This document shows positions 16,939 through 49,038 of a stretch of DNA of 64,000 nucleotides, one piece after another. The DNA lies in the NCBI GenBank assembly GCA_964187785.1, contig OZ076409.1, forward strand, positions 54,438,001-54,502,000, read 5' to 3'. A model generated the notes under the pieces. The model did not search any database, was not told the origin of the DNA, and was given only the letters and a program-made list of their open reading frames with translations. Numbering within the stretch: the first letter of the stretch is position 1; each line of letters starts with the position of its first letter. This DNA comes from Amphiscolops sp. MND2022. Taxonomy: Eukaryota. The translations under genes and the position numbers were made by a program.

Positions 16939-17570
16939 CCCTAGTTGAAAAAAGTACAAAACTTTCAAGAATCTTGCAAGACAATGCATTTTTCTGGCAG
17001 GTTTCTTGCCAGATTCTTGCAAGATATACCTCATATTGCAAGATATACGTCATCTTGCAAGATTCTTACTAGATAAAACTTTAGCTTGCAAGATTCTTGC
17101 AAGACAAACACTTCTTTTGCAAGAATCTTGCAAGATATGCCATTTCTAGATTGTGTTCAGCATGTTCCAAAAAGTCCTCGTAGCAAGCTTCAGCCTCGTA
17201 CAAACAAGCAGGTGCACAAAAAAGCTTCATTCACAATAATACATCAAATGAATGAGCACAAAAACCATGATGGATGTCTCTCGAAGTCCAATCTACAAAT
17301 CGACCTACAAATGAAAAAAGGACCTCGAAAAGAGACATTTGATTGGTTTAGATCTTATTCCGTTAGATTTTATTCCCCCTCTCCGGGAAAAGCCCTTTTT
17401 CTATCATTGTATCCGGCACTATTGAGCCCAGACATAGTCTCGACTATGGGAATAGTACCGGAACAGTTATTCTGACCATAACCCAATGCTCATGGGCATA
17501 ATTGATACAAAATACACTTAAATGTGATAGGAAATACAAGCAACTAGATTTCCCTACTCAAATTCAAAAT
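16939..17570. mobile_element. Truncated copy of the TCTTGCAAGA MITE (right end deleted)
   Basis: Left TIR and subterminal repeats are present; the right TIR is removed by the deletion in duplication copy 2. Confidence 0.8.
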
Positions 17571-27400: not shown

Positions 27401-30400
27401 TTTCCGATCACAAAAGTTACTTCTTCATGTTCTTGCACTCTCAAGTAGGCAACCATTAAAACTGCTTCCGACAAAGCATCTGACAAGATATTTAGATCAA
27501 CTTTGTTCATACCTCACTCAAAACATGCTCTCCCAAGGACAATTTAATTCACATGAATCATCTCTGATGCCCATTTTTTGAAGTCAAGTCGATCCTCTTC
27601 GTTCCATTTTGTATCCCACGACTGTCTGTTCTCGTTCCATTTTGATTTCAGTGGCAGTCGCATTCTGATGGTGAATGAAGACACTATTCCCAGAGGGCCG
27701 AATACAGCTAAAACATGTGATAAAACCGCTCTCTGCGTAATCTTCATCGGTGACTCTTTTTGCGTGCCTCTACTGACTTCCAGGCTGTCTACGTCATCAG
27801 TCCATTGCAGTTCCAATATTGATGGTGAAGTTGATTTGGCTTCGAAAGTGTAACTCGAGGACAGTGACTTGTCTGCTGGGTCCACAGTCGTCATAGTCTT
27901 CTCGCAGTTGCTAATTAATTTTGTTAACTGAAAACTTCCATTGGGCAGCACCGCTCGCAACGATTTGTCTATGTCAATTGCCTGCTCGGCACTGGTAACC
28001 AGACTTGTCAGAATCATCCATGTAGAAGTTTTGCGTTAATAATTCAGCAATTTGTGGAGACTTTTGTGCGTTAACTTTTGCGACATGTTGCAGAGCATAG
28101 TTAGCACAAGTAGACGAACTTTTTGCTCCAAAGATGTGTCTTCCATACTCATACAGTTTAACAAGGTTGTCTTAATACAGAACTTGGATTGTCTCGCGAA
28201 AGGAATCGTGACACTTTACAATCTTCTGGAGGTACTGTTGGAACATTGGCTCAAGGTCTGCGGTAATGGCGATCTCTTGTTCTCTAAACCTGAAGATTAT
28301 TCCAAGCACATTCTGCAATAAGACATTTACCTTGACGGAGTCTCTATAGAGCTTCTTCAACTCCGGTTTTGCATGTCTATACTAAGCCAAGGATTTCATC
28401 TGACTCAATGAAGAAGAGTAATTACTCGGCAGGAAGGGGTCATTTCTTTCCCAGAAAAGCCCAACTTCGCATATTTCCCTATCAATTTTTGTAGTTTGCT
28501 CCTGCAACTGCAAAGCTTTCTCATCTTCCGTAAACCTTTCAGACATATTGCAGCCAGATGCATATGATTCAATGTCCAACTAAGTTTTCATCTGTTCTGC
28601 CAGCGCGTCATCTTCAGAAGCTGTTACGCAAGATGCAGTCTCATGCACAGCTTCTTGTTTAGGAAGTGGTCCGCGGAGGGTCCATCCAAGTCCGTTTTCA
28701 CTGTCCACGGCTCGTCATTCGTGCAGCTTTAACATTCTTGGGTCCGATGTATATGGTAGCAGTTTTGTCCCAATATAATTTTTAAATCTTTGAGCTTCAA
28801 AGTTCCTTTGTCTAGTATCGACAAATGAGGATAGGTATGTTTGAGTTTTCGGTAGTTGTAGATCTTTCTTCAGGCGTCTGTGTTTGGATGAAGGTAGACA
28901 GTCAGGTGGTGAGTATCGCTCTTTGTCTTGCCACGGATTCCCACGGTGAATCATTCGCATTTCACATCATTTGTCCCATGTATTCCAGCCACACTTAAAT
29001 CATTTTCTTCACCTTGAATTTTTACCTTGTCAGCCAGAGTCGCACAACGCCAAGGTTGATTCTTGATTCTTTCCAATTTGGATGAAGTCAGGAATAACTG
29101 GCATCATTCCACGGCTCTCCAGTGAACAAAATGCTGAATTCAACTCTGCTTTCTGTTTTGCGTTTTCCGCTACACTTTATTCCCGCCGTCCATTTGCCTC
29201 GCGATGTAGCAATTGATGGTGCCGCCTGCTGCAACCTTGGACCCCACACGCTTGATTTGTGCAATTTTTCATCACCTGCTTCCCAGCCAAACAACCAAAG
29301 CAGAAATACAACTCTTTGGCCTTCTCATTCCGGGCTTGACATATCATCTTTAACAACTTCTCGCATTTCCAAACAGGATCTTCCAAGGAAGTTAATGCAT
29401 CCTGATATCGGCAGAATCTATTGCCTTTACAATCCATCCATTCTAGTTGTTACTTGGCTTTCAAAAGCGCAATATTCGCGGCGATGAGTTACGCCCATGT
29501 GGTCAGTAGGTTCTGTCGGTTTGGCAGAAAGCCTGCAAGATTATCATTCGTCACGTTTTCTTTGCGCAGCTCAGCATGTACAACATCCACTTTTGTCTCA
29601 AAGTTTTGAATTGCTTTCATGTTGTTCTCCGATTGTGGCTCGTCCATAAAACTCTTCAAATAGTTGTCAATTGTTTTTGTAATCGATTCGTTTAGGATCA
29701 GCCATTTTCGAAGTAGCCACAGAACGCAGAATACACTAACTCAGAGAGTCCAAACTTTCCACTGCGAATACGATTCCAAAGAAGCAGATGAAGTAGCCCA
29801 AAACCCCTGAGCACACTATATACCCAAGAGCCCAGTATGTCCACTTCGTATACAAACTTCCAGTGTCTGCAGGAGTAGCCCAAGCACCAGAAAACACTGT
29901 ACGCCCAGGAACGCCCAGTTGAGACCACTTTGAGCACACACAGTTTTGTATAATTCACCAACAGTAGTTAAACAACGGTGGTTCACTGTACACGTTCGCT
30001 TGTTCGAATGTGCGTTTCTGACTGTCTACCAGTTAGATGATCATCCAGTTGTCCACCGAATTGATGATATCCGTCCAATTGATAATGTCCATCCGGCGGG
30101 CCAAATGTAACGGCTGCTTGAACCCTTTACTTGACCAAACTTTACTCCGTCCTGAATTCGGTGCTCCGTACTGCGGATCGTTACCAACACTGCTTGCTTC
30201 CTGGATATAAAGGACTGTATCTTGACTTAGTGGGACCAATGATCTCGAATTGCACTTCTTCTTCGTTTCTTAACATGTCCAACTCTCCACAAGTTGAGAG
30301 TAACTAACTTAGTCGCCCTTAGTCTTTTGCGAAATGTCAAAAAGAGGTGAAGATATTAAATGAGAATGAGAATTTATGTGGTCTTAAGACCCCACTTGAC

Positions 30401-30990
30401 AATAGCTATTCAGTCGTTAAAATCTCTATCTAGTATTGGTGTATATCTGGCGTACAATTCCACAGTAAATAAAGAGCAAATATAAGTAAGTTTAAATAAA
30501 TGACATTTAAGTGTAATATGAAATTATTGGTATGTAAACAAAGTATGTGGTGGAATTGGCATGATTTTAAAGAGGGTTGGAAAGTATGTTTACGCAGTGT
30601 AAATATCCCCAATACCAATAGCATTACATTTTCTTCAAGATCATATGAAAAAATCAGATAAAAATTTATGTATCAAAAATGGGTTTTCTTGGGGTCCGAC
30701 CAATGTCTCTTTGGGCGTTAATTTCTCTGGACCCAGGAGAGATACGAGTTCGGGTGCTTCGAGTAAGAAGTTGTGTTAACACCTCTAATGTGTACGTGCC
30801 AAGTTTGGTAGTGATTGGATAAGCGCTTCTCCAAAAAAGGGGAGTGGTCCTTTTTTACATGTAGCCGTTTTGCTAAACGTGGTAATTTTCAACTGAAATC
30901 TGGACTACGTTTCAGAGTGTTTCGAGTTTTAAAATTCACGAGTCACGTTCAAATTTCACTCTGCCGTCTTGCAATTGACTGGCGCGAACA
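24413..30990 (-). mobile_element. Decayed BEL/Pao LTR retrotransposon with three LTR copies
   Basis: LTRs begin TGTAACGG at 24413 (partial), 25025 (to 25851) and 30106 (to 30990). TSD ATCCG at 24408-24412 and 30991-30995. BEL-type coding remnants lie between them. Confidence 0.9.
25797..29700 (-). pseudogene. BEL/Pao gag-pol remnant with many stops and frameshifts
   Basis: Gag CFGC and CGVQGCSRRHHQLLH; RT-region FRFREQEIAITADLEPMFQQ; Pao TQRAVLSHVLAVFGPLG; integrase PHLGGIWKRLVRSYK and VEQTLNARP; C-terminal DGSVR...KRSVIKL. Confidence 0.88.
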
Positions 30991-31940: not shown

Positions 31941-32359
31941 CCTAATCTGATTGGTAGAAGTTATTAACCTCAGGGTCGTTATTAAAAGACCCCTATTGTA
32001 CTTGTCACTTCGTGTCAATCTTCACTTCAAGCAAGAATTGCACTTGCAAATATGCTGAATGTGACCTCTCGTCCGAATTTGTACAACATTTCAGACCCGC
32101 TAAAAAATCATTTTTACGACGGTCAATCAATCAGGGTGGTGAGAATATAGATAGGGTTGATGGATTTTCACACATCAGGGGAGATCAGAGTGACAAGGTG
32201 GTCAGTAGTTTCAACATGAAAGACAACTGGAAGTCTTTGAAGTCTTATCCCATCGTTACTTGAATTTGGTTGTACAAGATTTCTATTTCAAATGATAGAC
32301 AAAAATTGAAAAATTTGGAGCGCCTAGTTGACCGAGATACTGATTATTAGAAAAAGTGA

Positions 32360-32921
32360 TGTAAGGGCTAACGTCCGAATGTTCTCTCAGATCACAAGCG
32401 GACCTCGAGTCCCTCTTTGTCATTCTTGTATTCATGTTCTCCCATGCGCTTCTGGTTCCATCCTCATTTAAGGACGTACCCGGCTCAACGCCATGTTGAC
32501 CCAAAGGCAAATTTTCTACCATATTTTGTATTTCCGGGATAACTCTCTCACTTATAGCAGAACTAATGGCCCTGGTAATCTGTGATTGCATTAGGTCCAT
32601 CATAGCCTCCATCTCGCGCGACATCCTAGCGTTCATTTCCACAGATAGTGTATTGATAGACTCTATCAGTCTACTTTCCCCAACTGGTTCATTTCTACCA
32701 TCGATGTTTCTGATCTCATTTTCTTGAGATGAATTTTCTCTGTTCGGAAAGGACTGAAAGTCTCGTTGTCCCTCAGGGACGTTAATCAAGCTATCAAGTT
32801 CTCTTTCTATAGAGTTGGAACTTCTGCCACCTAGCATTACGTCCATGTTGCCGTAGTCTGACAACATATCTAATTCTCTAGATTTTCTAGACTTGGCCTT
32901 TTGTCTCCTCGTAGAAGGCAT
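32360..32921 (-). other. Intact copy of the Gag N-terminal coding segment in the 3' LTR
   Basis: ORF 32283-32969: MPSTRRQKAK...SDVSPY runs to the LTR end and then into flanking DNA. Confidence 0.8.
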
Positions 32922-33987
32922 TGAAAATGTTATTCCAGGAGAAAACATTTGAATTGTTCCTGGGGACAAATACTTCTATTTTCAGATTAATCAAGATGAG
33001 CGTAGTGTATCAGGTAGCTGCAAAATTATGATTAACCTTTGTCAGGCCGACTTGGGTATATATACCCCAGAGGGCATGACAGGCAAAATTGTAACGGTCA
33101 TGATACTAAAAATAGCAACGCAAACTAAAAATAGATACGTCAGCACTATAAATAGTAACATGACATCATTTTAGACTTGTGCGGGCGGCTAGATCAAAGG
33201 GCCCGACAAGTCTCATCCGCATATGGGTCAAATTGTTTACAAGTATAATTCATGCAAGCAACAGTTTACATGCACAACAATTCATGAAGGCCCTGTTCGG
33301 CGTATGGCCGTTGGGGTTTTCTAATTCAGTCCCATCATAATATGAGAGAGCAACAATTACATGTTAACAGTGTATATGTCTGTTTATTGCATGGGGTGGG
33401 TTATTTGCATCTTCAAGCCACTAATTAACTGGAATACCAATTTCATATGGCAAGTATACAGCATTTGAGTATTCATCGTGCTAACCGGCCATGACAGGCC
33501 TTATTTACTGCATAGCACCAAGACAATTAATACAGTGAATTGGGACAGCTATGTCACATAGCCGCTTTCGTCCTTTTTGTAATTACTGAATACCAATCAA
33601 GTATAGCATTAGAGCACAATAAGGCCGGCAAAGTTAGTTGGCCGCCTTGGTCCATTCTAAATAGTCATTAGCACAGTTACGTAATAAGTAATAAGATGGC
33701 TATTACAAACTGCACTCTGATTGGCCAATTGACCGTAGACGGCATAGCTAGCCATACTGAGCAGGCAAACATTTGAACACGTTTCCTTTCTGCCTGTCAG
33801 TATGGCTTGCTGTCAAATGTATTTTACATAAGAAATAACAATATAATCCATCAATTAATATTACATGTTCAAAATAATACTGAATGTTTGAAAGTTTTGG
33901 TTTATAATGGGAGCGTCCCAGGTAGGGCGATTGGCTTCGTATGGTCAATCGTGTAAATGTTGCCATCGCAGGCGGCAGCCTGCGACA
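32360..33987 (-). repeat. 3' LTR of the Gypsy element (1628 bp)
   Basis: Starts TGTAAGGG and ends GCGACA on +. Matches 46498-48122 apart from about 10 substitutions and two small indels counted by eye. Confidence 0.96.
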
Positions 33988-34732
33988 CTCCCCCTGGTAG
34001 CAATAAGAAAGTGCCCACTTGCATTCCTTCCAAAAAGGCTCTTTTGCGCGCTTCTAGTTGATCTGCCGATTCTCCCAAAATGGCCGTCTTGCGCAAGTAG
34101 TCTGTGACAGCTTCACTCTGGATTTGTAATGTAGATTTCCCACATATCACGCAATCTGAGTAATTTGCCATAGGATTGTTCGTCTCAATCTCCATTCCTT
34201 GGAAATGGTTTGCAACTGCGTCCAATGACTGCTGGGTAATCTCGTCCGCTGAGTAGGTGTCGTAAGTTGGTCCTTTCTCTTCTGGTGGGGGCGACATGGG
34301 AGTGTCCACCATGGGAATGATTTCCCTACACAGCTTGATAGGGTGATTATTGCGCACTCGGTCGTCTCGCCGTATTGGGCCGTTTCCTTTTCCTAATGAG
34401 AAAAAGGATTGGTCAAGAGTAGGCCTTGTTGCAAAACTCGCCCCGGAGGTCCCGTACCTTGGTGGGTTATATCGGGGGGCCTCGTTTCTAATTTTCAGCG
34501 ATGTGGATGGACCAGGCACTGGGATGGGTGATGATAATTCCATCTCGACACACTGGGCCATCATCATGATTTCGTCATCTATTTCTTCTTCGTCCTCCGA
34601 TGACAGTTGAAGGTCTAGCACCGAAGTCATGCTTAGGTCACACATTCCCTCCTCTTCGTCGCTGGACAGGCAGATGATATCTATGCCCTCGGGCGCTGCG
34701 CCGATGAAGTCTTCAGGAAATCGTTGAGCCAT
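33902..34732 (-). CDS. Accessory ORF3, 276 aa, acidic N-terminus with SIM-like motifs and a CxxC; unknown function
   Basis: ATG-initiated open frame inside the element. Motifs IDIICLSSDEEE, VLDLQLSSEDEEE and CVICGK. Reads through the PPT and ends 86 nt inside the 3' LTR. Confidence 0.75.
   Translation of the reverse strand: MAQRFPEDFIGAAPEGIDIICLSSDEEEGMCDLSMTSVLDLQLSSEDEEEIDDEIMMMAQCVEMELSSPIPVPGPSTSLKIRNEAPRYNPPRYGTSGASFATRPTLDQSFFSLGKGNGPIRRDDRVRNNHPIKLCREIIPMVDTPMSPPPEEKGPTYDTYSADEITQQSLDAVANHFQGMEIETNNPMANYSDCVICGKSTLQIQSEAVTDYLRKTAILGESADQLEARKRAFLEGMQVGTFLLLPGGVSQAAACDGNIYTIDHTKPIALPGTLPL
33988..33995 (-). other. Polypurine tract (AGGGGGAG)
   Basis: Purine run directly upstream of the TG of the 3' LTR on the minus strand. 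Confidence 0.88.
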
Positions 34733-35079
34733 AAATCTATCTTTTATTATCTTTTTTGCAATTTTGAATGCGATAGGACAATTTTAATTCGGTTTGAGTA
34801 GAGCAACTGTTTAGTTTGAAAGTTAGGAAGCAAATGGCGATTTTCATTTTTCAATTTCTCGATGGTTTTGCTTCACATTTTCCCGGTCTTTCGTTTCCCG
34901 CATCATGTTTCGCTGACTAAACTTTCCAAGATGTTCTTTGATATAGACCGCCTTCTGCTTTGTTGACCGACGATCAACTTCAGCTTGCCTAAGTCGGCAA
35001 AGAACCTTCAAGGACTTCGTCTAGTGTTTATCTCCACTTGATATCCACTTGAGAATTTCAAGAGAGGGTGATGAAGTTT

Positions 35080-35155
35080 TAAGGCCACGCGCGGCGCATC
35101 GCCGCGACAGCCAATGGGAATCGCCCACTCAGTCCGCTTTTCAATATGGCGGAAT
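35080..35155. promoter_or_regulatory. Putative internal bidirectional promoter core
   Basis: CpG-rich patch (GGCCACGCGCGGCGCATCGCCGCG), CCAAT box and YY1-like AATATGGCGG between the divergent 5' ends of ORF3 and the antisense gene. Confidence 0.5.
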
Positions 35156-35892
35156 TAAAAAGAATAATCCAAATAAGGAAATAATAAAATAACTAAAAAT
35201 AATGAAATAACTAAGGTAATAAAATAATGAAAATGCATGTTTCGAAATATAACTAATGTGGATTTCTCTGGCAGATTCCATCCACAAAATAATTCTCATA
35301 ATTGTAAAAATATTTGACATCAAATCCAGTTTGCCACGAACTCCAACTTTGCTACTGCAATCGCAATCATTTTCAATTCTTCAATTGTCAATTCGTTACA
35401 TTACTTACATTCGTATTTATCCATTGTTTATTTAGTACAGAGTCATTGTTTGAATTTTATACTGCCTCTCATCCCCTCATTCAGGATCGTTGTCCAGCTG
35501 CCGGACTCGTCCAGATCTTCCTTTTCGTCGTCATCAAGACCTACTCCTCCCTCTTCACTGCCAAAGATTTGCCCAATCAGGACATTCGGTTCCTCAGGAT
35601 CTTCTAGCCTGGTTTGCAGTACAATTTCAATACGTCAAAGATCTTCACGTCATACTCCTTCAGCTCCCAATTGGCCAACAACTGCAGGTAAGCTATCTGG
35701 TCTTTTAATTTTTGAACGGAAATAAGCTTGATCAAGGCTTTTCATCTCGTTCATGCACTTCCTGTCCATTTTCGTCGATGCAATTTAAACGTCATGTTTT
35801 ATTCCTTTTCACTTCCGGAAGATTTTACTGCGGTTTGGATGGACTCATATTCAGGAAGTTGTCCGCATGTATTTATCTCTTTTCATTTAGGT

Positions 35893-38800
35893 ATGACAAC
35901 AGAGGAAAATTCGCCAGAACCCACTACCGCTCCAGTTGTCGGGAACGATGAAACTGAGACTCCAGAGACCGTTGAGTTACCAGGCCTTATCAGGCCTTCT
36001 CCCCAAGTGTCCGAAGGCAGCAGGTCTACTGAAGAAAGTGTGACCGCATTTATTGAAAGGACCCTTGACGTAATGTCTCAACCCGAGGCTGAGATCATAG
36101 GTCCACTGCAAAGTCAGCCAGGTGTTACTGCCCGGATGGTCACTGTCAGCATCCCCTTTCTAAAAGCCTCTGTGTCGGAGCCCATTGCTGTGAGGAATGA
36201 TCTGACAAACATTGAGACAGGGGCCGGCAGTAACAAAGAAACTGAATCTACAGAGGAAGTACCAGGACTATATGGCGACACCACAGATGTGGAAGATTTT
36301 ATGGACAGCTCTGGCGTTGCCGTTTACCCACCAGTCGCTCCGAATGTCATTTTGGATTCTACTACTTTCCCTGATCTAGAAGAGGGATTCCATGAAGACT
36401 CAGGGCACAGTGATTCCGAACAGGAGCAGTATCGAGCCAAATTAGACGGCGCCGATAGGCAACTTTCCGCAAAGGGCAAACTAGTCATCAAGAAGTATTT
36501 TCAGGACACTCGCAACATTGAACTACCCAGAGATCAACCAGTCATCGCTCTTACCGCAGATGAGATGCACGCTGTCCTGAGGACCGTTTCCGACGAATCT
36601 GTACTTTCGTCCTACCACATGATGAAGTCTTTGTTGCTTCATGCTACTCGGGGAGCTCCCCAGGATAAGAAAAGGCCTATGCCCAAACGGTGTGCAACTC
36701 CTGCACGGCCGTTCACTGACAGTTCAGGAGATGAGAGTAAATTTGAGGGACACGTCTCAGATGGTTACACTAGTGGAGCCTTCAATACAGATGAAGATCC
36801 TTACCAGTTGGGGTCCAGTTCTGGCACAGATTGCCTGAGTGAATCTGATCCTTTGTCTTCGACTCCAAGGGCCCGGAAAGTCCACGCCACCATCACGTCC
36901 CGGGTAGATACTGCAACGCCAAACTCTGGAAGCGGGTATAGCAGTGCTGATTACCAGCCACTCTCGTCGCTTGGACGGATACCCGAGCAAGAAACTCAGG
37001 ACAGGAGCCCAGCCCGGAAAAGACGCAAGTTGCTCAGCAAACCTGGGAAGGTGATGAAAGATGCCTATTTTAAGGGCATCCAATGGACCCGTATCTTCGT
37101 ATCTGGCCCCGTCGATCCCGTCCACAATAAATTCAAGTTTTACTGCATGCTATGTAAAACTAATGTCTCTATTTTCTCAAAGGGTGCCAGGGAGATCCTA
37201 AGACACTATAAGACAGAAGGACATCTCCGGAAAGATCAAAAGTGGAGGTTCACCCATCTGCAAGAGGCTGATGAAGTTACTGGGGTTGTTACGCACTATG
37301 TCAGAGGGAAAGATGGTTACGTCCTTACTCCAATTGAGCTGGAGCGAGAAAAGCCATTATTCATTGATGCCCCCCTGATCGAGGCAGGTGATCGTTTCCC
37401 GTTCTACGATGACTACATGGCTAGTATTGGAGGACTAACCAGCCCTGATGACCTTCGGACCAGTACCTTAATCTCATTGATTGGGACTTTCGTACCGCAA
37501 GATGGCAATATTTCCCTGTTGCGAAACTTATGGACTCGAGTGGGCATGTTCACCAACCACCAAGCCTTGTTTTCCTCATTCGATTGGGGACCTGCAACTC
37601 TTACTGTAAGTAGAATCTTCATCTATAGAATTAATTGTAAGACCCAATGTGGCCTCCGGCTAAGACGTCCCTTTTGTACATTTGTGTTTTGTTTTAGAAC
37701 GTCTTCCATCACGTTTTCATGAGAGGTCTCGCAGATATCTCCAGTCACATCATGGCTACTGAGATGTACTCGATTGAGTTCACGACAGAGGGCATCCACC
37801 GGTGCATGTCTGTCCGTTTCTGGAGAGATGACTCACTCGTTCGGGTTGAACTTCATCGGCACAATCAAGCTGACCCTTATCCGTGCTGTTACTTAACAGC
37901 TATCTCATGTCTGCTGTTAGTTGTGTCCTCAAAGCCCAATCTTGTCAGTGTTTCCGGATGTTCTTCCATGGTCTTCAGAGCTTTAGAGACATGTGGGCTG
38001 TTCAACCGCGGGATTCAGTACCCGTTCCGCTTCGAGGTTTTCTCCCTTCCCGAGTTAATGCAGCCCACAGCACTACTGCAGACTGGTTACATCTTTGGTC
38101 GAATTGACATTTTCTCCCAACTGAAGATCCTAGTTGTCTACCTCCGAGGCGGGCTCAGTCAATCTTGGGCTCTACAGAGTCCTGAACTTTGCAAGGTGAT
38201 TTATTTTCCAACATAATTTTTCATTAGACGTTGACCTGGTGACCTGGTGTCGATACTCTTTCCTGGTCACTTTCATAATAGTAAAAGCAGTTCTCCTTAT
38301 TTGATTGTGTTCCGTAGGCCATAACAGCATGTGATGTGGAACTCAAGAAGATCCCTGCCGTTTGTTCCGAGCTCGTTAGAAGCTGGAAAGCTATCAAGGA
38401 CTACCTGACCAGTATAGCCCCAACCCAGAAGATGCAAGGAGCTAAGAATAAGGTAGCTATTAGCCGTTTTCTAGTTGATCAGCATTGGTAACTACACCAC
38501 ACTGTAATCTTGGAAGATGTAATCCTTATGAGGTAAATTTCCTTTTAAGCCTCAGAGCCTGGAATGGGAGATTATTCTAGATGACTTCTTCACCATCAAG
38601 CTTGAATTCCTCTCCTTGCTGGTCCGCGATTGTTAGTTTTTCTTCATTTTTATTTGAACCGCCAGCGTAGTTGACCTACCGGCTCATGTGCCGATCACGG
38701 CCTTAAGCATAACCACAATTGTGATGAGGTGGGGGATTTGGTGGATTCTGGTGATTTGCATCTGACTCTAAATTTGTTTAGATGCCAAGTGTTTCGAACG

Positions 38801-39938
38801 AAGTCTCTCTGGACGGCGGGATGCAACCCTCTTCGTTTATGGCCAATATTGCAGATTCATCCGCCGGTTGTGCCACCGCGCCATCTTGCCCAAATGTATC
38901 CCAAGCGATACAGACTGGAATGGTCTCTTGCAATTGTGCCCTGACGATCTGAGACAATTATCAATCCGTGATTTCTTGCATCGCCTCAAACTCACATGTG
39001 ACCTTGATCTGGTTTGTCAAGCAAAACTGGAGAAATCTAGGGGATCAAATCTTGTACCCGCTAATCAGGCTGAGTTGGTCTCCAAGGAGAAGGAGAATTT
39101 TGGGACTGAAGCCCGGGCATATATAGTCACTCTGTTGGAGTCTTTGCTTCGGGATATTCACTTCACCGCGAATATTGTCCGCGGTATGGGTAGCTTCGAT
39201 CCCCATGTGTTATTGACATTACCTCTTGAGCAAGTATCCTTTTGCTTCAACGCTTTGTATGACAGCTTTCGACTTCGCGGCTGGGTGGACGAATCCTCCC
39301 GCAATGACTGTCGGGATGAATATTTCGAGTTTCTGGACTACTTTCGCAAATGTTACCCTTCCATTAAGTCTTCCCCAGGGACTATTGCTCACGTGTTACA
39401 TCTCCTTATTCCAATTACTGAGTTCCGAAGTCGTGCTAGGCTTTTTCGCTTGTTTCAGTTGTGCTGCCTTTGCATAACTGAGGGACATCAAACCCTTCCT
39501 GCCGTTAAATTCCAGGATGTCGATACCTCCAATTCCCGATGCCGTCTTTCTGCGGTAATACTGCCCGCCCAATCCTACTTGACAAATTGCCCAAGTGCGA
39601 TTTCCGTTTGTACCACTGAAGCCGCTCTAGCTAACTACAAGGAATTGGAGGGACAATTTAGTTCCGGACAGCTTGCTGGAGACCCTTGGGTTCACGTCGA
39701 CGTCTTTGGGCAGGCGAATTTCCTGAAGACCCTTACTGCTGCCTTCAAGAATTTGAAAGGAACTCCCGTGGTTGGCGTTAGCACGGCTTCACGTTCGTCC
39801 TCTGTCTCAACTTCTGCTGGGCGAAAGATAAATTGGGCTGCTGGGCAAGCTCAAAAATTGGCCTATTTTGGCGACATTCCTGCTAGTGAGATCTCAAAGA
39901 CAGTCCAAGAATTGCGAGAAGGAAGCTCTAAAAGTTAA
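35893..39938 (+). CDS. Antisense spliced cargo gene: ~1192-1194-aa protein with BED-type zinc finger and degenerate hAT-transposase-like body
   Basis: Coding exons 35893-37605, 37698-38195, 38318-38452, 38550 (or 38556)-38631 and 38782-39938. All introns are GT-AG with compatible phases (0,0,0,1) and give one stop-free frame. Probable 5' UTR intron 35688-35890. C-x2-C-x16-H-x5-H finger (FYCMLC...RHYKTEGH), basic NLS PARKRRK, AATAAA at 40085-40090. hAT assignment is from motif resemblance only. Confidence 0.8.
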
Positions 39939-40115: not shown

Positions 40116-43100
40116 CTAGTATCTGTATTCATCAGTATAGTTGGGGTTGGGGTTAGGTCGAAGGTTGTATTTCCCCCCTCTAGGGCTAGAGTTTTCATCA
40201 GTTTTTTCATTTGCTTTTTCATTCGATATTCCGGGCACGGTAATATCATCCCCCTCGTTAGGAGAGTTTTCCTCGCTTTCTAATTCATTTGTGACGTCAT
40301 TCACGTTCTTTTCTGAACTAGGTGGTGTATTGCCACCATTGTGGCTATTTCGGCTAGTGGCCGTTCTCGGCCTTTCTATTTCGCTGCTTTGTTCGCCTCG
40401 CGCAGCATTCTCGCTAACGTCATGTTCATCATGCATTATAAGTGCGTCTCGGCTAGCGGCCGTACTCGGTCCCGCTTCATTTTCATTCTTTTTGGTTCGT
40501 TCATTCAGTTCGATGACGTCATTTGCGTCTCGTGTCATTGTGCCGTCTCGGCTGGTGGCCGTCCTCGGCCTTACCGCGTTGTCATCAGCGTTGTCATAAA
40601 TGACGTAATCACTAGTCGTGACACCAGCATCGCTGTCTGGTGCTTGCGATTCTTCGTCCGTATTATCGTCTCGTCTCGGCTCAAAGAGATGGTAGTCAAA
40701 ATCTGCTTCCCATGAGATGGTGTATAAATCATCTTGTGGTATGATTATTTCATCATCTGGTTGCAATTTCTCTTTGGCATATTTGTCCTCTAAAGTCGTA
40801 TTAGGAACAAACTTTTTCAGGCGAATTCGGTGTAATATCTGTGTTTTATTCGTATTTAACCGGCGGACAATGTAATTGTCGTTAGGTAATACCTTTTCAA
40901 TTCGATAAGGACCGATCCAGCGATATTCTCTGAATGGTATTTTTGATCCTTGATTGTCCGCTTTAGGTTGTAGGATAAAGCAAAAATCTTGGTCACTGAG
41001 AGGAGCTGCTTTGGCCTTTCGGTCATAGTACTCCTTATATTTCAAGTAGGACTGCATAATGTTATGTTTCGTTTTGTCAATGAGAACTTTTGTTCTCTGT
41101 TGTAATTCTTCAGCAAATTCAGTAGTCGGGAGGAAATCCTTATTAGGATTATTTCCAAGTTTATGGTCAAGAACATTATAGGGAATTCTTCCGTGAAAGA
41201 CCTTGCTCGGTTCACAACCGATGCTGGAATGATAAGTTGTGTTATAATTGAGCACTGCTAGTGGCAAATATTTGTGCCATTGACGGCGATATTCCCCTGA
41301 GGCCATTTTCAAATTTGTTTTCAATGAGGCGTGAGTTCTCTCGAGTTTGCCAATTGTTTGTGGATGTTTAGTCGTCGCACATTTTAGGGTTATTCCTAAT
41401 ACTTGCGTTATCTCTGCAATAATTTTTGATGTAAAAGCGGTTCCTTTGTCGGTGATGATCGTAGTTGGCAAATATGAGTGCTTTGTCATGATGTCTATTA
41501 AGACCTTTGCCGTGTTAGAGGCTGTTGCCTCAACTAACGGGTAGGCAAACAGATATCTTGAGAAGACATCTATTGCTGTCATCACTGTTTGGTAACCTCC
41601 GCTTGTTGGCAAGTTTGGGAGTAAATCGATTTGCATTGCGTCCTCTGGTCCAAGGTCCCATTCTGGCAAGTTAAGCAATTCGGGCGTTATCGTGTTGTTT
41701 GGGACCCGTTTATCTTTTGCGCAAGTTACACATCCTTCTACCCACTTTTTAACGTGTTTTGCTATACCGGGGTAGTAGTATTTCTGTCGTATTTCTTGTA
41801 ACATCTTCGATATACCCGGGTGTTTGTGCGCCGTTCCGTGTAAGGCCTGTAACAATTCTGTCAAAAGGTGTTTTGGTAAGAGAACTTGGTGATACTTGAC
41901 TTGTCCAGTTTCATCATAATATTGTCGTGTGACTATTTCGTCTTTAAGGACTATTCGGTCCAAGTTGTAAAGGTAGTGTTTGTATCGGATATCTTGCTGG
42001 AGTAGTTCTTCAGAATAGTCTTCGTTCTGAATTTTGGCTTTGAGTTGGCGCAGTATAGGGTCGTTGGATTGTTCAAGTAAAATTTGATTCGTTCTGCGCA
42101 TTTTTTGGGTAAAGTTTGTAATCTCATCTACTATGTTTTCAGATATTGCGTCAATTTGAATAAAGCCTTCTTGGTCGATTGGGTTGGTTCGGTTTTGTTT
42201 TTTACGCTCCCAAATTTGAGCTTCTGTCTCATCATCTTGCTCCGTGAAGAAAACTTGTTCCTCTTCAGCAACGCCTGCCGATTGGACATTGACCTCGATG
42301 GGCTTAGTCTCTATGTCTTCGCGGATTTTAAGGACTAGTTTCTCTCTGGGGTCCATTTCCATGCGAGATAAGTAGTCGGCGGCTGTGTTGTTTTTCCCTG
42401 GTATATGTGCTAAGACAAAATTGAATTGTATTACATAGTCACATGCATTCCAGAGTGTTGGAGGGATTATCTTCGTCTGGAAGAATCTCGTGACCGATTT
42501 GTTGTCCGTGAGGATGGTAATCGGTTTAGGGGCTCCCCAGAAAATATGTCCAAATTCTTTGAATGCGTAGTAAATCGCTAAGAATTCCTTAGCGTATATG
42601 GACATTTTGAGTTGCGATGGCGTAAACGTTTTTGAGCCATATGCAATTGGAGCGTATGATTTTTTGACAGATGAATATTTCTGGTTTGGGTCGTCCTCGG
42701 TAAGTATGGCGTAGCCGGCCGCTGTGAAACTAGCGTCAGTCATCAGGACCAGTTGCTTGTTTGGCAAAGGTTGCTTCAGGGCCAATTGGCTACATTTGTC
42801 GAGGTCCCGATTGATTTCATTGAACTGTTGTATTAGTTCTGTGGTCACCAGGACTTTTTCGTCTTTTTTGAGAAGTTGAAAGAAAGGGGCTAATTTTTCA
42901 GATAATCTTGGGATATAGTTCCTGTAATAATTTAGGAAACCAAGATATCTTTGTAGAGCCTTTTTAGATTTGGGAAATTTGGTTTTTCCTAGGAAGTTTG
43001 TTATTCGCTCCTTTTGTGGTTTGACTCCCTCCGGAGTAATTGTTCTCCCCAAGAAATCGATTTCCGTTGCCCCGAAGTGGCATTTGTGCATTGTCAGTTT

Positions 43101-45365
43101 AAGGCCAGCATGCCTAATGCACACAAAGGTTGCTTTCAAATTTTTTATGAGATGATCCGCATCATTGGCGGCTATGCCAATGTCATCGACATATTGGGCA
43201 CATTGATCAGCTTTGATAACTTTATCGAGATATTCCCTCATGAAACTTGAAAATGCTGATAATGCCCTGCTAAGGCCCTGGGCAAGTCGTCTATACGCAA
43301 AGGTGCGGCTTGCAAAGTTGAACGCAAGCATCTCAACGGACCTTTGGTCCGCCATTGGTAGGCAGTGATATGCCTGTGAGCAATCAAGTTTACAGAATAG
43401 TTTCTTTCCTGCCATATGTTGTGCAGCGTCCGTTAGGGTACTAACCGGATGATTGTTGTTGATATAGTCATCCGAAATGAGGTTGTTAATTTTCCTCAGG
43501 TCGACTAGTAGTCTTAGCTTCCCATTCGGCTTTTTCTGTGCGAATATGGGACTGGCGTATTTCGAAAATGGCAGTGTAGTTATTATGCCATATTTGTGTA
43601 ACAGGGCCAGTTCGACAAGTATGTCCTCTTTTAAATTGACTGGAGTTGGGAGACTTTGGCTGTAAGCAGGCGAATCGTCCTTAGGAGTCAGTTTGACCGT
43701 GAATTCTTCATTCATTCCGATGTCAAATCTGTGTCGTGCAAATATGTCATGGTATTCGACTAAAAGCGATTCGATCTTTTTGATTTCATGTTGTTGCAGC
43801 ATGGAGTCTTTCCAGTCGAAATTGCCAAGGAATTTGCGGCGTGACTCATCATCATTCTGTGGATTCAATTGTTCAGCTTCTTGGAGGTTTCGTAATTCTT
43901 GAAGGATTCGTCGTTGGATGGGAGTATGGGAATCTTCGTCCCCTGGGTTTTCTGGCGTAGGAAACCAGTACTGTTCATATTGGTCATTGTTCCGATTAGC
44001 CTTGAGTAGACTACTGACATAGTAGATCGCATCCTCTTCGTTTTCATTGAGGAGATGCCATGTGGACACCGGGTCAATTGGTTTGACGTGTTTCATCTGT
44101 TCCGGTGTTAGTACGGAAAAGTTTGCTATGTGTAGTCCCTTTTTAAGCTTGTACGGTTGGTCTGTAAAATTGTTGATATGAACGTTGACGTTTCCATTAG
44201 TCAATGTGACTATTGCGGCACAGAATGTGATGTCGCCTTCTTCATGGAGGAGATCACTGGGTTGCAACACCCCTGTGACCGTATTTTCATTGTAGATTTG
44301 GGATTTGATCTCTACTAAGGTACGGTCATTGGGTGGTATTGTGATATCGTCTGGGTTAAGTATTGGTTCCAGTACGTTAGAGTATTTATGGTCAGCCGTT
44401 TTGAGTTGCATCGAGAAATATGGGAAATTGAGTATGCCTTGTCGCATGTCCAGTACTGTATGATTCCTCTGGAGGAACATTAGTCCTATGATAGGGCCAG
44501 TCAGTTTTTTCATTACTATGAATATTTCATGGAATTCAATATCTCCGACTTCGAACTTGAGTTCAACAGTGCTCTTTGGGGTTTCCAATTGTCCGTTTGC
44601 GACCATAATTTGAAACGTCGGGGCAGGTCCCTCTTTGACTATGGATTGGGGCGCCAATAGGCGTATTTTCCTGAGGTCTGCTTCCGGAATTGCGCTGGAG
44701 TGAGCTCCAGTGTCTATGAGGCCGTCTATGGTTAGTTCCCCAAAGTCCATCGGGAAATATAGCATCCGTTTTTTGTATTTGAGTCCGAGGTTTGTGGATA
44801 GTGGTATGTACGCTGGTTCTCCCTCTTTAGTTACCAGGACATGTATGAAGGCTGTCTCGTCGAGGAGGCCAGGTGTGGCCTGTGTCTCTTCTGCATGTGG
44901 TTGATCTTTGATCGCATCAAAATTTGGTTCCCATTGTTCGATGAGTGCCCGGGACAGTATGGTGTCTACAATGTCAGGGTCATCCTCATCGTCTGTTGGC
45001 GGGTAGTCATCATTCCGAAATTGTAAATTGTGTTTATCATATAACTCATCATCCCAGTACGGGTCTTTGCCGTACTCGGGGTCGTAGTATTGGGGGTTGT
45101 AGTCTTCGACAGTTTGTAAGGGTCGGAATTGGGTTTCTGAGTCTTTAGTAAGGTTATTACGTCGATATAGGTATGGGTGGTCACTGTGAATAATATATTG
45201 AGTTTGAGTACAGGCTTCCACCATCTGCTGCTGCCAGACAGTCGATGGGGTCCCTGTGATGTTCTTTTGTGATTGCTTATAAGCGATGTTAGCTGGGTCA
45301 GATATGACATACTGTCGTATCGACATTTGGTCAGAGATTTGGAGTCGTGGCAAAATTAGTTTTTT
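40116..45365 (-). CDS. pol: Pol polyprotein: aspartic protease, RT, RNase H, integrase (intact, ~1745 aa)
   Basis: Protease LIDTGA; RT LLVDLRKIN, KLDCSQAY, YVDDI; RNase H LMTDAS, KEFLA, LTDNKS, ADYLSR; integrase H-H-CC (HGTAHKHPG...CVTC), QIDLL, TDKGTAF, GKLERTH; GPY/F motif WIGPYRI. No stops. Confidence 0.97.
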   Translation of the reverse strand, partial: KKLILPRLQISDQMSIRQYVISDPANIAYKQSQKNITGTPSTVWQQQMVEACTQTQYIIHSDHPYLYRRNNLTKDSETQFRPLQTVEDYNPQYYDPEYGKDPYWDDELYDKHNLQFRNDDYPPTDDEDDPDIVDTILSRALIEQWEPNFDAIKDQPHAEETQATPGLLDETAFIHVLVTKEGEPAYIPLSTNLGLKYKKRMLYFPMDFGELTIDGLIDTGAHSSAIPEADLRKIRLLAPQSIVKEGPAPTFQIMVANGQLETPKSTVELKFEVGDIEFHEIFIVMKKLTGPIIGLMFLQRNHTVLDMRQGILNFPYFSMQLKTADHKYSNVLEPILNPDDITIPPNDRTLVEIKSQIYNENTVTGVLQPSDLLHEEGDITFCAAIVTLTNGNVNVHINNFTDQPYKLKKGLHIANFSVLTPEQMKHVKPIDPVSTWHLLNENEEDAIYYVSSLLKANRNNDQYEQYWFPTPENPGDEDSHTPIQRRILQELRNLQEAEQLNPQNDDESRRKFLGNFDWKDSMLQQHEIKKIESLLVEYHDIFARHRFDIGMNEEFTVKLTPKDDSPAYSQSLPTPVNLKEDILVELALLHKYGIITTLPFSKYASPIFAQKKPNGKLRLLVDLRKINNLISDDYINNNHPVSTLTDAAQHMAGKKLFCKLDCSQAYHCLPMADQRSVEMLAFNFASRTFAYRRLAQGLSRALSAFSSFMREYLDKVIKADQCAQYVDDIGIAANDADHLIKNLKATFVCIRHAGLKLTMHKCHFGATEIDFLGRTITPEGVKPQKERITNFLGKTKFPKSKKALQRYLGFLNYYRNYIPRLSEKLAPFFQLLKKDEKVLVTTELIQQFNEINRDLDKCSQLALKQPLPNKQLVLMTDASFTAAGYAILTEDDPNQKYSSVKKSYAPIAYGSKTFTPSQLKMSIYAKEFLAIYYAFKEFGHIFWGAPKPITILTDNKSVTRFFQTKIIPPTLWNACDYVIQFNFVLAHIPGKNNTAADYLSRMEMDPREKLVLKIREDIETKPIEVNVQSAGVAEEEQVFFTEQDDETEAQIWERKKQNRTNPIDQEGFIQIDAISENIVDEITNFTQKMRRTNQILLEQSNDPILRQLKAKIQNEDYSEELLQQDIRYKHYLYNLDRIVLKDEIVTRQYYDETGQVKYHQVLLPKHLLTELLQALHGTAHKHPGISKMLQEIRQKYYYPGIAKHVKKWVEGCVTCAKDKRVPNNTITPELLNLPEWDLGPEDAMQIDLLPNLPTSGGYQTVMTAIDVFSRYLFAYPLVEATASNTAKVLIDIMTKHSYLPTTIITDKGTAFTSKIIAEITQVLGITLKCATTKHPQTIGKLERTHASLKTNLKMASGEYRRQWHKYLPLAVLNYNTTYHSSIGCEPSKVFHGRIPYNVLDHKLGNNPNKDFLPTTEFAEELQQRTKVLIDKTKHNIMQSYLKYKEYYDRKAKAAPLSDQDFCFILQPKADNQGSKIPFREYRWIGPYRIEKVLPNDNYIVRRLNTNKTQILHRIRLKKFVPNTTLEDKYAKEKLQPDDEIIIPQDDLYTISWEADFDYHLFEPRRDDNTDEESQAPDSDAGVTTSDYVIYDNADDNAVRPRTATSRDGTMTRDANDVIELNERTKKNENEAGPSTAASRDALIMHDEHDVSENAARGEQSSEIERPRTATSRNSHNGGNTPPSSEKNVNDVTNELESEENSPNEGDDITVPGISNEKANEKTDENSSPRGGKYNLRPNPNPNYTDEYRY

Positions 45366-47056
45366 GATTCAGGTTTTTTAGAATTCGATTGGCCTGATGA
45401 GGATGTTGTGGATTTTTCATTCTTGGTGCGAGTGCCTTCGTCTTCAGAGGGCTCCGTGTCTTTGGTGGAGTCCTGTCTATTTCTTTTTGGACGAAGATGG
45501 GCACCAGCGCCACGCCAACATTTCTCTGCTGGGTGATTGGTTTTACTGCAGGTGGGACATTCTGGATAAGTTTGTCGTTGAGGCTTCTTGCCGTCTTTGG
45601 CCTCTGATTCTTTCTTCTTTTTCAGTTTTGGACAATTTTTCCAGAAGTGGTCCTCTGCCTTGCAGTATGAGCATTGGTAATTTTTGTTGGTGTCGATGCC
45701 GTTAGATAGTAGATTTCGGGACTTGTTGGACGACGAAGCCATTGTAGCAATGGGTAGGTCATCAGATTCTTCTAATGCGTTTAACTCGAGTTCCCGTTCC
45801 AGATGTGCCACAATCTCCTCGTAGGTCCCGTTTTCCAGTCGAGCCATATTTACTGATCTTTTGAGTTTTGGGGGTAATTTAGCATACAAGAGGCTGTCTA
45901 TCATGCTTTTGGCGTTTTCCCCAAAGGCCTTCTCGGCACCCTGGTTGAGTTCCTCAAGAAAATCGGGTAGTTTCATCGTGTTGGGATCAAAGATGAGCCT
46001 GTGCCACTTGTGTTTAGCTGTGGCTTGAGACTCGGGTTTGACGTACTTTCTGCGGAATATGACCAATACGTCTTCTAATGTTTGACGGTTTATGGAGTTT
46101 ATATTTCGGAAAGTTTGCAGTGCTCCTTTTCTGAGCAGAGAATGAAAATGATTTATTTTCATTTGTTCTGTCATGGCAGGCTGCATCTTTATCATTGTAT
46201 GAAATAAATCTTCAAACAATTCAAATTTCTCTGTTTTGCCGTCAAATGTCATGGGGTTCGTCATGACTGGTCTAATTGTCATCGAGTGTGGTTTATTTTG
46301 GAGGTTTACCAGGACATCTGCCAATCGGTTGATAGGGTCTTGTTGCTGTTCTGCCGGAGCAGGCTCCGCTATTGGCAGAGTTGTATCCAGAGTTGTATCA
46401 TGAGTAGATTCTTGTCTTTGGAGGTCTGGCTGAGAGTGAATTCGTCCTGTGAGGAATTCAGGAATCGGCTGTTGGAGTTCGGTAGCTCCTGTCACCATGT
46501 AAGGGCTAACGTCCGAATGTTCTCTCAGATCACAAGCGGACCTCGAGTCCCTTTTGTCATTCTTGTATTCATGTTCTCCCATGCGCTTCTGGTTCCATCC
46601 TCATTTAAGGACGTACCCGGCTCAACGCCATGTTGACCCAAAGGCAAATTTTCTACCATTTTGTATTTCCGGGATAACTCTCTCACTTATAGCAGAACTA
46701 ATGGCCCTGGTAATCTGTGATTGCATTAGGTCCATCATAGCCTCCATCTCGCGCGACATCCTAGCGTTCATTTCCCCAGATAGTGTATTGATAGACTCTA
46801 TCAGTCTACTTTCCCTAACTGGTTCATTTCTACTATCGATGTTTCTGATCTCATTTTCTTGAGATGAACTTTCTCTGTTCGGAAAGGACTGAAAGTCTCG
46901 TTGTCCCTCAGGGACGTTAATCAAGCTATCAAGTTCTCTTTCTATAGAGTTGGAACTTCTGCCACCTAGCATTACGTCCATGTTGCCGTAGTCTGACAAC
47001 ATATCTAATTCTCTAGATATTCTAGACTTGGCCTTTTGTCTCCTCGTAGAAGGCAT
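45356..47056 (-). CDS. gag: Gag with two CCHC zinc knuckles; N-terminus encoded in the LTR and frameshifted in this 5' LTR copy
   Basis: ORF 45356-46582 has a capsid-like region (FDGKTEKFELFEDLF) and the knuckles CSYCKAEDHFWKNC and CPTCSKTNHPAEKC. The 3' LTR copy shows an uninterrupted frame from MPSTRRQKAK to the LTR end. The 5' LTR has 2-bp and 1-bp deletions with a stop at 46622-46624. Confidence 0.9.
45359..45365 (-). other. -1 ribosomal frameshift slippery site A-AAA-AAC at the gag/pol junction
   Basis: Minus strand reads TCA AAA AAC TAA. The X-XXY-YYZ heptamer sits just before the gag stop, and the -1 frame continues as K-L-I-L-P-R-L-Q into pol. Confidence 0.85.
46481..46497 (-). other. 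Primer-binding site (TGGTGACAGGAGCTACC)
   Basis: TGG immediately follows the terminal CA of the 5' LTR. It resembles a tRNA-Leu-type PBS (TGGTGTCAGGAG) with a mismatch; tRNA identity not verified. Confidence 0.85.
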
Positions 47057-48122
47057 TGAAAATGTTATTCCAGGAGAAAATATTTGAATTGTTCCTGGGG
47101 ACAAATACTTCTATTTTCAGATTAATCAAGATGAGCGTAGTGTATCAGGTAGCTGCAAAATTATGATTAACCTTTGTCAGGCCGACTTGGGTATATATAC
47201 CCCAGAGGGAATGACAGGCAAAATTGTAACGGTCATGATACTAAAAATAGCAACGCAAACTAAAAATAGATACGTCAGCACTATAAATAGTAACATGACA
47301 TCATTTTAGACTTGTGCGGGCGGCTAGATCAAAGGGCCCGACAAGTCTCATCCGCATATGGGTCAAATTGTTTACAAGTATAATTCATGCAAGCAACAGT
47401 TTACATGCACAACAATTCATGAAGGCCCTGTTCGGCGTATGGCCGTTGGGGTTTTCTAATTCAGTCCCATCATAATATGAGAGAGCAACAATTACATGTT
47501 AACAGTGTATATGCTTGTTTATTGCATGGGGTGGGTTATTTGCATCTTCAAGCCACTAATTAACTGGAATACCAATTTCATATGGCAAGTATACAGCATT
47601 TGAGTATTCATCGTGCTAACCGGCCATGACAGGCCTTATTTACTGCATAGCACCAAGACAATTAATACAGTGAATTGGGACAGCTATGTCACATAGCCGC
47701 TTTCGTCCTTTTTGTAATTACTGAATACCAATCAAGTATAGCATTAGAGCACAATAAGGCCGGCAAAGTTAGTTGGCCGCCTTGGTCCATTCTAAATAGT
47801 CATTAGCACAGTTACGTAATAAGTAATAAGATGGCTATTACAAACTGCACTCTGATTGGCCAATTGACCGTAGACGGCATAGCTAGCCATACTGAGCAGG
47901 CAAACATTTGAACACGTTTCCTTTCTGCCTGTCAGTATGGCTTGCTGTCAAATGTATTTTACATAAGAAATAACAATATAATCCATCAATTAATATTACA
48001 TGTTCAAAATAATACTGAATGTTTGAAAGTTTTGGTTTATAATGGGAGCGTCCCAGGTAGGGCGATTGGCTTCGTATGGTCAATCGTGTAAATGTTGCCA
48101 TCGCAGGCGTCAGCCTGCGACA
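46498..48122 (-). repeat. 5' LTR of the Gypsy element (1625 bp)
   Basis: Direct repeat of 32360-33987. Followed on the minus strand by the TGG-starting PBS and flanked by TSD AGTGA. Confidence 0.96.
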
Positions 48123-49038
48123 AGTGAACTGTTCACCTGTTACTTCAACATTCGAGCTCGAAAAAACACACACATTTAGGAACAACTCATATTGATTAAA
48201 ACTGACATGTGTTCAATGCAATGCATTATTTAGGAGGATTAACTACATCTTATTTTCAGCGAAGGTAATTTAACAGTTCCCCACTGGGAAAACTTGCTCA
48301 TTTTCTTCGAAGGTCTGTCATTGAACTCCTGTCTAGTATTAGTGTAATTCTGAAAAAAAATGGAAAACATATTTTACATACTTGCTAAAGTTGACAGAAA
48401 ACTAAGAATCAAATTTTAACGACTGCTATTTTACTACATAAAGCGCTAATAATTTTAATTTAATTAAAAGCACTAGAAGTTCACTCGGAAACAGTGTCAA
48501 CATTTGCTGGAAAAAAATTGAAAAAACCAAGTGACACGAAAAAAACGCAAAAAATAGCAAATTTGACTGCGAAACATTTGTAAACAGAATATCAAAATTT
48601 TTGAAAAATATATATGTTTGGTCACTAGTCGCTCATTCAGAAAGATCACCTTCGAGATCACCATTAGACCAATTGGGCGTTTGGAAACGCGAAATTGTTT
48701 GAATACGCGTTTCGCACTTTTTCAGTATCACTTCGTTTCGAGAAACTATCTGATGATTGATTGCTCATAATTGATTTTCAATTGGAGCAGAGAAAAATAA
48801 ATTGACGGTTTTTTGCGGACTACTTGATAGTACCGTGATCTGAACGAAACTAATTTTTTGCCGAATCAGAATCCCAGTTACTAGGTGAACAAAAAACAGA
48901 ATGCAAAGAAGTAGTTTCTTCTCAAGATTGTAACGTTTGCAAACACTGCACTGAAAGTGTTCCATTTTTTGTCAAACATTCAAAATGTAGCTCTCATTTT
49001 AATTACATTTTCATAGGACGGGTCCAGCAATGAGAAAT

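Follow-up and report, generated by a model that had tools for sequence, protein, structure and literature searches.

Two divergent extra genes, one probably descended from a hAT transposase, in a Ty3/Gypsy retrotransposon of Amphiscolops sp.

A Ty3/Gypsy element with two extra genes behind pol

The window considered here, i.e. the whole 64,000-nucleotide stretch of Amphiscolops sp. MND2022 contig OZ076409.1 (GCA_964187785.1, positions 54,438,001 to 54,502,000), contains a young 15.8-kb Ty3/Gypsy LTR retrotransposon on the minus strand, which is the host of two extra genes. Its 5′ LTR (46498..48122, minus strand, 1,625 bp, with a TATA-like box near 47195) and 3′ LTR (32360..33987, minus strand, 1,628 bp) differ by 10 substitutions over 1,625 aligned bases. 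The TG...CA ends of the LTRs, the 5-bp target duplication (32355-32359 and 48123-48127), the polypurine tract (PPT) that borders the 3′ LTR on its inner side (33988..33998, minus strand, within the ORF3 frame) and the order of the pol domains all fit Ty3/Gypsy. The pol gene (40116..45326, minus strand) encodes protease, a weak dUTPase-like insert, reverse transcriptase (RT), RNase H and integrase, in that order; the insert (pol residues 325-405, window about 44110-44355, minus strand) lies between protease and RT and has an E value of 3.7e-4, under the Pfam cut-off. A dUTPase in the same place is reported for rotifer and basidiomycete elements in the available text of PMC5408684. The gag gene (45356..47056, minus strand) starts inside the 5′ LTR, with about 190 codons within the LTR, and a primer-site-like TGG just past the LTR falls in the gag frame. 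Within the LTR this frame is open in the 3′ copy (32360-32948) and interrupted in the 5′ copy (46498-47056), both on the minus strand. No Rfam family or tRNA was found. The flanks of the element hold a near-identical ~4 kb tandem duplication and two older repeat-bounded elements (12147-20119, 24413-30990, 49171-56288), none of which carries ORF3 or the antisense gene.

The two extra genes occupy the 6.1 kb that separate the pol stop (40116) from the 3′ LTR: ORF3 in sense with the element (33902-34732, minus strand, 276 aa, its final 86 nt within the 3′ LTR) and an antisense gene on the plus strand, likely extending from 35839 to 39938. That an ORF on the minus strand and a zinc-finger gene on the plus strand diverge from a spacer of ~1.1 kb, as proposed in the preliminary description of this DNA, is borne out, the gap between the start codons being 1,106 nt with the antisense start at 35839.

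ORF3 encodes an N-terminal SIM-like motif and an acidic tract, followed by a Cys/His-bearing C-terminal half. In a SIM, a Ser/acidic run follows a hydrophobic core; the SIM-like motif, also part of the earlier description, is conserved together with the acidic tract in 41 of 52 near-full ORF3 representatives, and the pattern is present in L001, the one locus returned by a metagenome scan for relatives (three scans of viral contigs found none). The motif likely makes ORF3 a candidate SUMO binder. ORF3 homologs form 101 clusters at 31-99% identity, with one further homolog in L001, and in the C-terminal half Cys, His and Pro residues are invariant among 26 aligned rows. The most conserved block of ORF3 is the PPT/LTR edge, which is kept as DNA (50 of 71 bases match L001); since 118 of 170 long homologs stop 28-29 residues past this block, the extension of ORF3 into the 3′ LTR characterises the family. 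Searches with ORF3 against Pfam, PDB sequences and the Atlas gave no usable match and no known family. Assignment as an env-class third ORF was rejected, there being no transmembrane stretch (the highest 19-residue hydropathy is 1.12) and no family match. A short A-rich block 15-30 nt before the ORF3 ATG (34748-34765, minus strand) appears as the same five residues where the proteins of five relatives read through it, and probably belongs to a conserved leader.

The antisense gene is predicted to comprise five coding exons and four introns and to encode about 1,210 aa. Because prokaryote-style gene calls run into introns, the exon borders can be read from relatives. Exon A (35839..37605), which encodes a conserved 18-residue start, a long low-complexity stretch, a CxxC-H-H zinc finger and a helical region, ends at a donor at 37606, where homolog similarity ceases and the donor-encoded Val follows in 100 of 120 proteins. 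Exon B (37698..38195) encodes the first half of a predicted RNase H-like core, and four homologs, at 36-42% identity, read through the whole of it. Exon C (38318..38452) is continuous with exon C2 (38556..38631) in homolog P0622, and C2, whose own donor is weak in score, is continuous with exon D (38782..39938) in P0609, P0659 and P0736; all five exons are on the plus strand. At the exon D acceptor (38781) the encoded Asp stands directly before exon D in 86 of the 98 proteins reading in from upstream, a tally made by eye in which many rows are near-identical. Exon D encodes a hAT-like helical and C-terminal region, has an AATAAA downstream at 40085, and its profile matches 828 clusters at 50% identity, i.e. 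a large family. Thus the zinc-finger gene noted previously is a real plus-strand gene, but is larger than was described, running to 39938 over four predicted introns. Its start, placed earlier at 35893, is likely at 35839, because the intervening 18 residues are kept in 55 of 78 long homologs, some of which lack the second Met.

Farther upstream, a possible coding exon at 35485-35687 has a phase that fits exon A, but it lacks an ATG and is open in almost every frame, and was treated as non-coding. A perfect 10-bp palindrome with two ETS-like halves (35812-35821) lies 18 nt before the antisense ATG; read-throughs suggest that it is kept in distant relatives, and it may be an acceptor, a binding site or both.

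Relation of the antisense protein to hAT transposases

The zinc finger of the antisense protein, like the SIM-like motif of ORF3, was named in the preliminary description and is conserved, with CxxC-H-H ligands in 107 of 120 homologs; weak matches to PF25420 are present in 34 of 42 homologs, and none to zf-BED. The predicted structure of P0237, a read-through homolog, has a mean pLDDT of 54, with values of about 70-89 across the exon B core, and its order of elements is RNase H-like (helix, three strands, helix, strand, helix). With this model Foldseek returns Hermes at ranks 1-9 (best E 3.8e-3) and VIA-align returns Hermes at rank 2 (Z 6.7, 139 aligned residues, rmsd 9.4), other RNase H-like folds being similar in score, over fewer residues. 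A model of exon D aligns with Hermes 367-590 over 163 residues (Z 5.0, rmsd 8.5, rank 4), the other rows covering at most 87 residues; Foldseek gave no match for exon D. The Atlas neighbours of the antisense protein carry a hAT dimerisation family on 53-60% of members and include FAM200/GTF2IRD2-like clusters, all under the Atlas recognition mark. Searches of the antisense protein against hAT in Pfam profiles and against PDB sequence profiles gave no match. Every line of hAT evidence falls under the firm threshold of its tool (Z under 8); the weak lines agree and are colinear with Hermes, and descent of the antisense protein from a hAT transposase appears probable.

The hAT enzymes have a DDE triad, with two catalytic aspartates in strands 1 and 4 of the RNase H-like fold. 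In the window sequence and six read-throughs, mapped onto the P0237 model, no conserved Asp was found in strands 1 and 4 of the exon B core, and the third catalytic residue was not placed; a partial row, P0280, has one Asp at the end of strand 1. No terminal inverted repeats flank the antisense gene among the 25 longest of 63 repeat pairs. Because a conserved strand 1/4 Asp and terminal inverted repeats are both lacking, the antisense protein is likely a disarmed DNA-binding descendant, which is predicted to bind DNA without cutting it; the preliminary description of the zinc-finger gene did not recognise this probable origin. Within the LTR (32950-33900), 8-mers around TTGGCCAA and GCCTGTCA are each present in 3-4 copies and in none of the flanking DNA; these are candidate sites for the antisense protein.

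The spacer and the sources of the two transcripts

A candidate promoter core in the spacer (35086..35235, plus strand) comprises a CpG patch (35086-35108), a CCAAT box at 35111 that faces the antisense gene and lies inside a full NF-Y-type 9-mer (35109-35117), a YY1-like ATGGCG at 35146 (a second lies at 34834) and an A-rich tract (35156-35235). The CpG patch, CCAAT box, two ATGGCG motifs and A-rich tract named in the preliminary description are all present, though weak against chance. The best spacer 100-mer has 10 CpG, a count matched by 0.66% of window 100-mers, and CpG depletion is slight across the window (observed/expected 0.88); among shuffled spacers the NF-Y 9-mer arises in 322 of 2000, and two or more ATGGCG in 111 of 2000. 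Each of the named motifs is singly near chance.

The sole relative with readable DNA is L001, a 1,310-bp contig with an ORF3 that is 35% identical and 554 nt upstream of it, ending before the antisense coding sequence. Gapped alignment of the spacer with L001 scores 303, a value reached by 0/300 global shuffles, 0/300 local shuffles and 0/364 real-DNA controls, and by this alignment the spacer region as a whole is homologous to L001. By segment, the homology is significant on the antisense side alone (9/1000 shuffles); the CpG and CCAAT core (452/1000), the middle (255) and the part next to ORF3 (158) are not above shuffles, and chains of 8-mers between spacer and L001 are not significant (36-190 of 1000). 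L001 retains the NF-Y 9-mer in the same orientation, pointing away from ORF3, at a distance to the ATG of 347 nt, compared with 385 nt in the window; by chance it occurs anywhere in 206/5000 shuffles, and in 37/5000 in a position band that was picked post hoc. L001 also has an A-rich run behind the CCAAT box and a strong antisense donor farther on. Of the promoter motifs proposed earlier, the CCAAT box is thus retained in a homologous spacer, but the YY1-like motifs and CpG patch are not evident in L001. A 10-mer with a quasi-palindrome behind the CCAAT box occurs in both (window 35266-35275, L001 99-108) and is not above chance alone; in the window it also coincides with a predicted plus-strand acceptor.

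On the antisense side, the spacer is predicted to hold an intron-containing 5′ UTR of the antisense gene (35216..35838, plus strand), with donors at 35216 and 35688 and acceptors at 35274, 35484 and either 35821 or 35890. On the plus strand of the element interior, donor 35688 ranks first of 902 GT, and acceptors 35484 and 35890 rank third and fifth among 703 AG, as scored with generic weights. Since the best interior donor and these highly ranked acceptors sit there, the spacer from about 35216 is likely a spliced leader; about 35216-35838 looks like spliced 5′ UTR, and the earlier view of the whole spacer as promoter is not upheld.

The introns of the antisense gene survive retrotransposition because genomic RNA holds their complement, and a separate antisense transcript would therefore be needed. 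The promoter of this transcript likely sits in the spacer. Alternatively, transcription of the antisense gene could start in the 3′ LTR, as it does for HTLV HBZ, the spacer then supplying exons and splice signals only. A plus-strand donor in the 3′ LTR (33922) scores 5.8, second only to 35688, antisense LTR promoters are known according to the available text of PMC7264820, and the spacer promoter motifs are singly near chance. However, donor 33922 lies in ORF3 codons and is not evident at that place in L001, L001 retains the CCAAT 9-mer, followed by A-rich sequence, and the promoter of maize Grande gene23 is described as lying just upstream of the gene itself (PMC7264820, available text); an LTR origin of the antisense transcript is improbable.

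The source of the ORF3 transcript is less clear-cut, and the earlier proposal that both genes are transcribed independently of the LTR fares differently for each: the antisense gene appears to need its own transcript, and for ORF3 an acceptor-like site would also allow env-type splicing from the LTR. This acceptor-like (or start-site) motif (34807..34826, minus strand) lies 74 nt before the ORF3 ATG with no ATG between, and in L001 its counterpart, the best local match there, lies 53 nt before the ATG. A by-eye impression that the motif before the ORF3 ATG is strongly conserved was set aside, as 88/300 shuffles reach it; the motif is a weak lead, compatible with a start site, with an acceptor of the env type and with trans-splicing. 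One 11-mer occurs before the acceptor-like site (34814-34824) and after the ORF3 stop in both LTRs (33886-33896, 48021-48031), all on the minus strand, and nowhere else in the window.

It may be that the spacer works one way only, as the promoter of the antisense gene, with ORF3 expressed in env-like manner from LTR-started RNA spliced onto the acceptor-like site at 34806. The site has a branch-like motif and is preceded within 660 nt by five ATGs, each near the CCAAT box or on the side of that box towards ORF3, and followed by no ATG; compatible Gln-Leu codons are found 23-27 codons before the start in two of three independent long read-throughs of relatives; and the CCAAT box points to the antisense gene in both the window and L001. 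An efficient short sense intron would, moreover, be expected to vanish on retrotransposition. Splicing of the env type is the usual route as described in the available texts of PMC5408684, where rotifer ORF3s are said to use spliced messages, and PMC4402516 (Tor3a). By contrast, generic weights give the acceptor-like site a low score, its resemblance to L001 does not exceed that of shuffled sequence, and the stretch from the LTR TATA box to the gag ATG has no good sense donor, the strongest donor of the LTR (46616) being 440 nt inside gag, although Tor3a is described as having odd donors near its gag start (PMC4402516, available text). On balance a one-way spacer seems rather unlikely, if the most credible of the alternatives.

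A related possibility is that the 5′ end of ORF3 RNA, whether internal or LTR-started, is formed by spliced-leader trans-splicing at 34806. The acceptor-like site without a good sense donor nearby would be in keeping with this, and precedents are given in the available texts of PMC3315495, on an SL1-spliced subgenomic RNA of C. elegans Cer1, and of PMC9911081, on LTR-rich animal genomes some of which trans-splice 30% of genes, the latter as an example only. The acceptor-like site is itself a weak lead, however, and trans-splicing here is quite improbable. Initiation of ORF3 from the spacer has about an even chance, perhaps slightly better.

The reading that is favoured, at somewhat better than even, is that the spacer combines the promoter of the antisense gene with its spliced 5′ leader, and possibly also the start of ORF3, the antisense product being a hAT-derived DNA binder. 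Antisense transcription would begin shortly past the CCAAT box, near 35140-35210; non-coding exons would precede the ATG at 35839, and the transcript would end after the AATAAA at 40085. ORF3, 5.4 kb behind the pol stop, would need its own mRNA, for which the simplest source would be the other face of the same promoter; this mRNA would have its mature 5′ end near 34806 and its 3′ end in the 3′ LTR.

Co-occurrence, candidate roles and known systems

The two genes recur together across relatives, as was anticipated earlier. With contigs matched by their length, ORF3 shares, per 100 cluster pairs, 46 contigs with exon A and 29 with exon D, against 41 between exon A and exon D, which belong to the same gene; the control, between different clusters of one gene, gave 1, 3 and 0 shared contigs in 45 pairs. 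The sample took 10 clusters of each kind, out of 101 for ORF3, 101 for exon D and 120 listed for exon A, with at most 15 members each, drawn from among larger clusters that were mostly near that of the window (two JGI members of cluster P0104, of 35-38 aa, were left out). Sharing here means presence on the same contig and says nothing on adjacency or orientation, the position relative to pol being taken from the window only. A listed antisense-gene protein accompanies ORF3 on 96 of 229 ORF3 contigs, the remainder not being negatives.

The pairing is block-like (p 5e-5), and it is mosaic, in that the top partner takes 34 of the 46 contigs shared by ORF3 and exon A, against 38 of 41 in the exon A with exon D control. 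Mantel values of ORF3 against the antisense gene exons are 0.32 and 0.47, and that of the exons against each other is 0.71, computed from contigs that carry a single long protein per kind (32, 31 and 29). The genes co-occur yet recombine, which argues against a tight lock-and-key pair. Modelling of a complex between ORF3 (residues 110-276) and the antisense protein in three pieces, run without alignments and with the fold of the partner uncertain, gave no answer (score 0.00).

The reshuffling of ORF3 against the antisense gene, and the fact that its top-conserved block, the PPT/LTR edge, is kept as DNA, would be compatible with two unrelated passengers, i.e. a nested, decaying hAT transposon and an ORF kept open by its overlap with the PPT/LTR edge. 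However, both frames remain open over their whole length across hundreds of proteins with identities as low as about 30%, the invariant Cys, His and Pro residues of ORF3 lie outside the LTR overlap, and the antisense gene lacks terminal inverted repeats among the repeat pairs considered; that the two are mere passengers is very improbable.

Under the favoured reading, of a spacer that serves a hAT-derived DNA binder and possibly ORF3, a hAT transposase gene would have landed backwards behind pol in an ancestor of the element, its introns surviving retrotransposition by lying on the opposite strand in genomic RNA. In the descendant the zinc finger and fold would have been retained without the catalytic aspartates, and the protein would have become the element's own DNA-binding regulator, with activation or anti-silencing ranked above integration tethering as its probable role. 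ORF3 would likely bind SUMO via its N-terminal motif and counter SUMO-dependent silencing, acting beside the DNA-binding protein and not necessarily bound to it. The two would thereby form a self-regulatory cassette of a hAT-derived DNA binder and a small SUMO-binding protein, each favouring expression of the element, all functions of both proteins being deduced from motifs. A bolder version, in which a domesticated transposase acts as a sequence-specific targeting protein with a SUMO-binding effector under a private bidirectional promoter, as a two-gene anti-silencing switch that helped the family to hundreds of copies, is speculative and unlikely. The family is real, and a bidirectional promoter in its spacer is plausible.

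Antisense extra genes behind pol are described in Grande, RIRE2, Retand and Boty, with origins called unknown in the available texts of PMC7264820 and PMC11963269; the former, a review, reports no likeness of the antisense ORFs to other transposons, and raises the capture of a nested transposon as a hypothesis unsupported by sequence. The family described here looks like a worked case, in which a hAT transposase gene is retained with introns and predicted to lack catalytic residues. In the openly accessible literature, no element with a multi-exon hAT-derived antisense gene head to head with an LTR-overlapping sense gene was found, and repeat databases may already hold such families. Together, the antisense gene and the gene with a SUMO-type motif form a candidate regulator or counter-silencing system encoded by a retrotransposon, and one concrete enough to be tested.

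The closest parallels in layout are plant Ty3/Gypsy elements (maize Grande with gene23, rice RIRE2, Retand with TRP28/Transposase_28), which also have a long pol-to-LTR region and a family-wide antisense gene. The available text of PMC7264820 describes their antisense ORFs as proposed nuclear or DNA-binding regulators, as here, and gene23 as transcribed from a promoter upstream of itself; it also cites brtn of Boty (Botrytis, Sclerotinia), likewise an antisense gene behind pol. By contrast with the plant ORFs, the antisense gene here has a predicted product of 1,210 aa, four coding introns and hAT-like character, and a second gene, in sense orientation, runs the other way from the same spacer. 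No match to the TRP28 (PF04195) domain, the criterion of the Retand/Grande lineage, was found in the antisense protein. Among animal Gypsy-type elements, Oikopleura Tor3b/4b express a third sense ORF (env) from an internal promoter, and Tor3a does so by LTR splicing (PMC4402516, available text); unlike the Tor env, ORF3 here has no transmembrane stretch and is not env, and no antisense partner is noted for Tor in that text.

Among hAT transposases (Hermes and domesticated FAM200/GTF2IRD2-like proteins), the antisense protein appears to follow Hermes in the order zinc finger, RNase H-like core, helical region and C-terminal part. It differs from the group in the absence of conserved Asp in core strands 1 and 4 and of terminal inverted repeats, in its long low-complexity N terminus and in being borne by a retrotransposon and not fixed in a host genome.

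With regard to function, VANC of VANDAL transposons is presented as the model of element-encoded anti-silencing in the available text of PMC6719617. No sequence or fold relation to VANC or to complex-retrovirus accessory genes was found. The nef gene overlaps the PPT and U3, and ORF3 crosses the PPT into U3 as nef does. Like VANC, HBZ and Nef, the products of the antisense gene and ORF3 would be element-encoded accessory factors, here acting on expression of the element itself.
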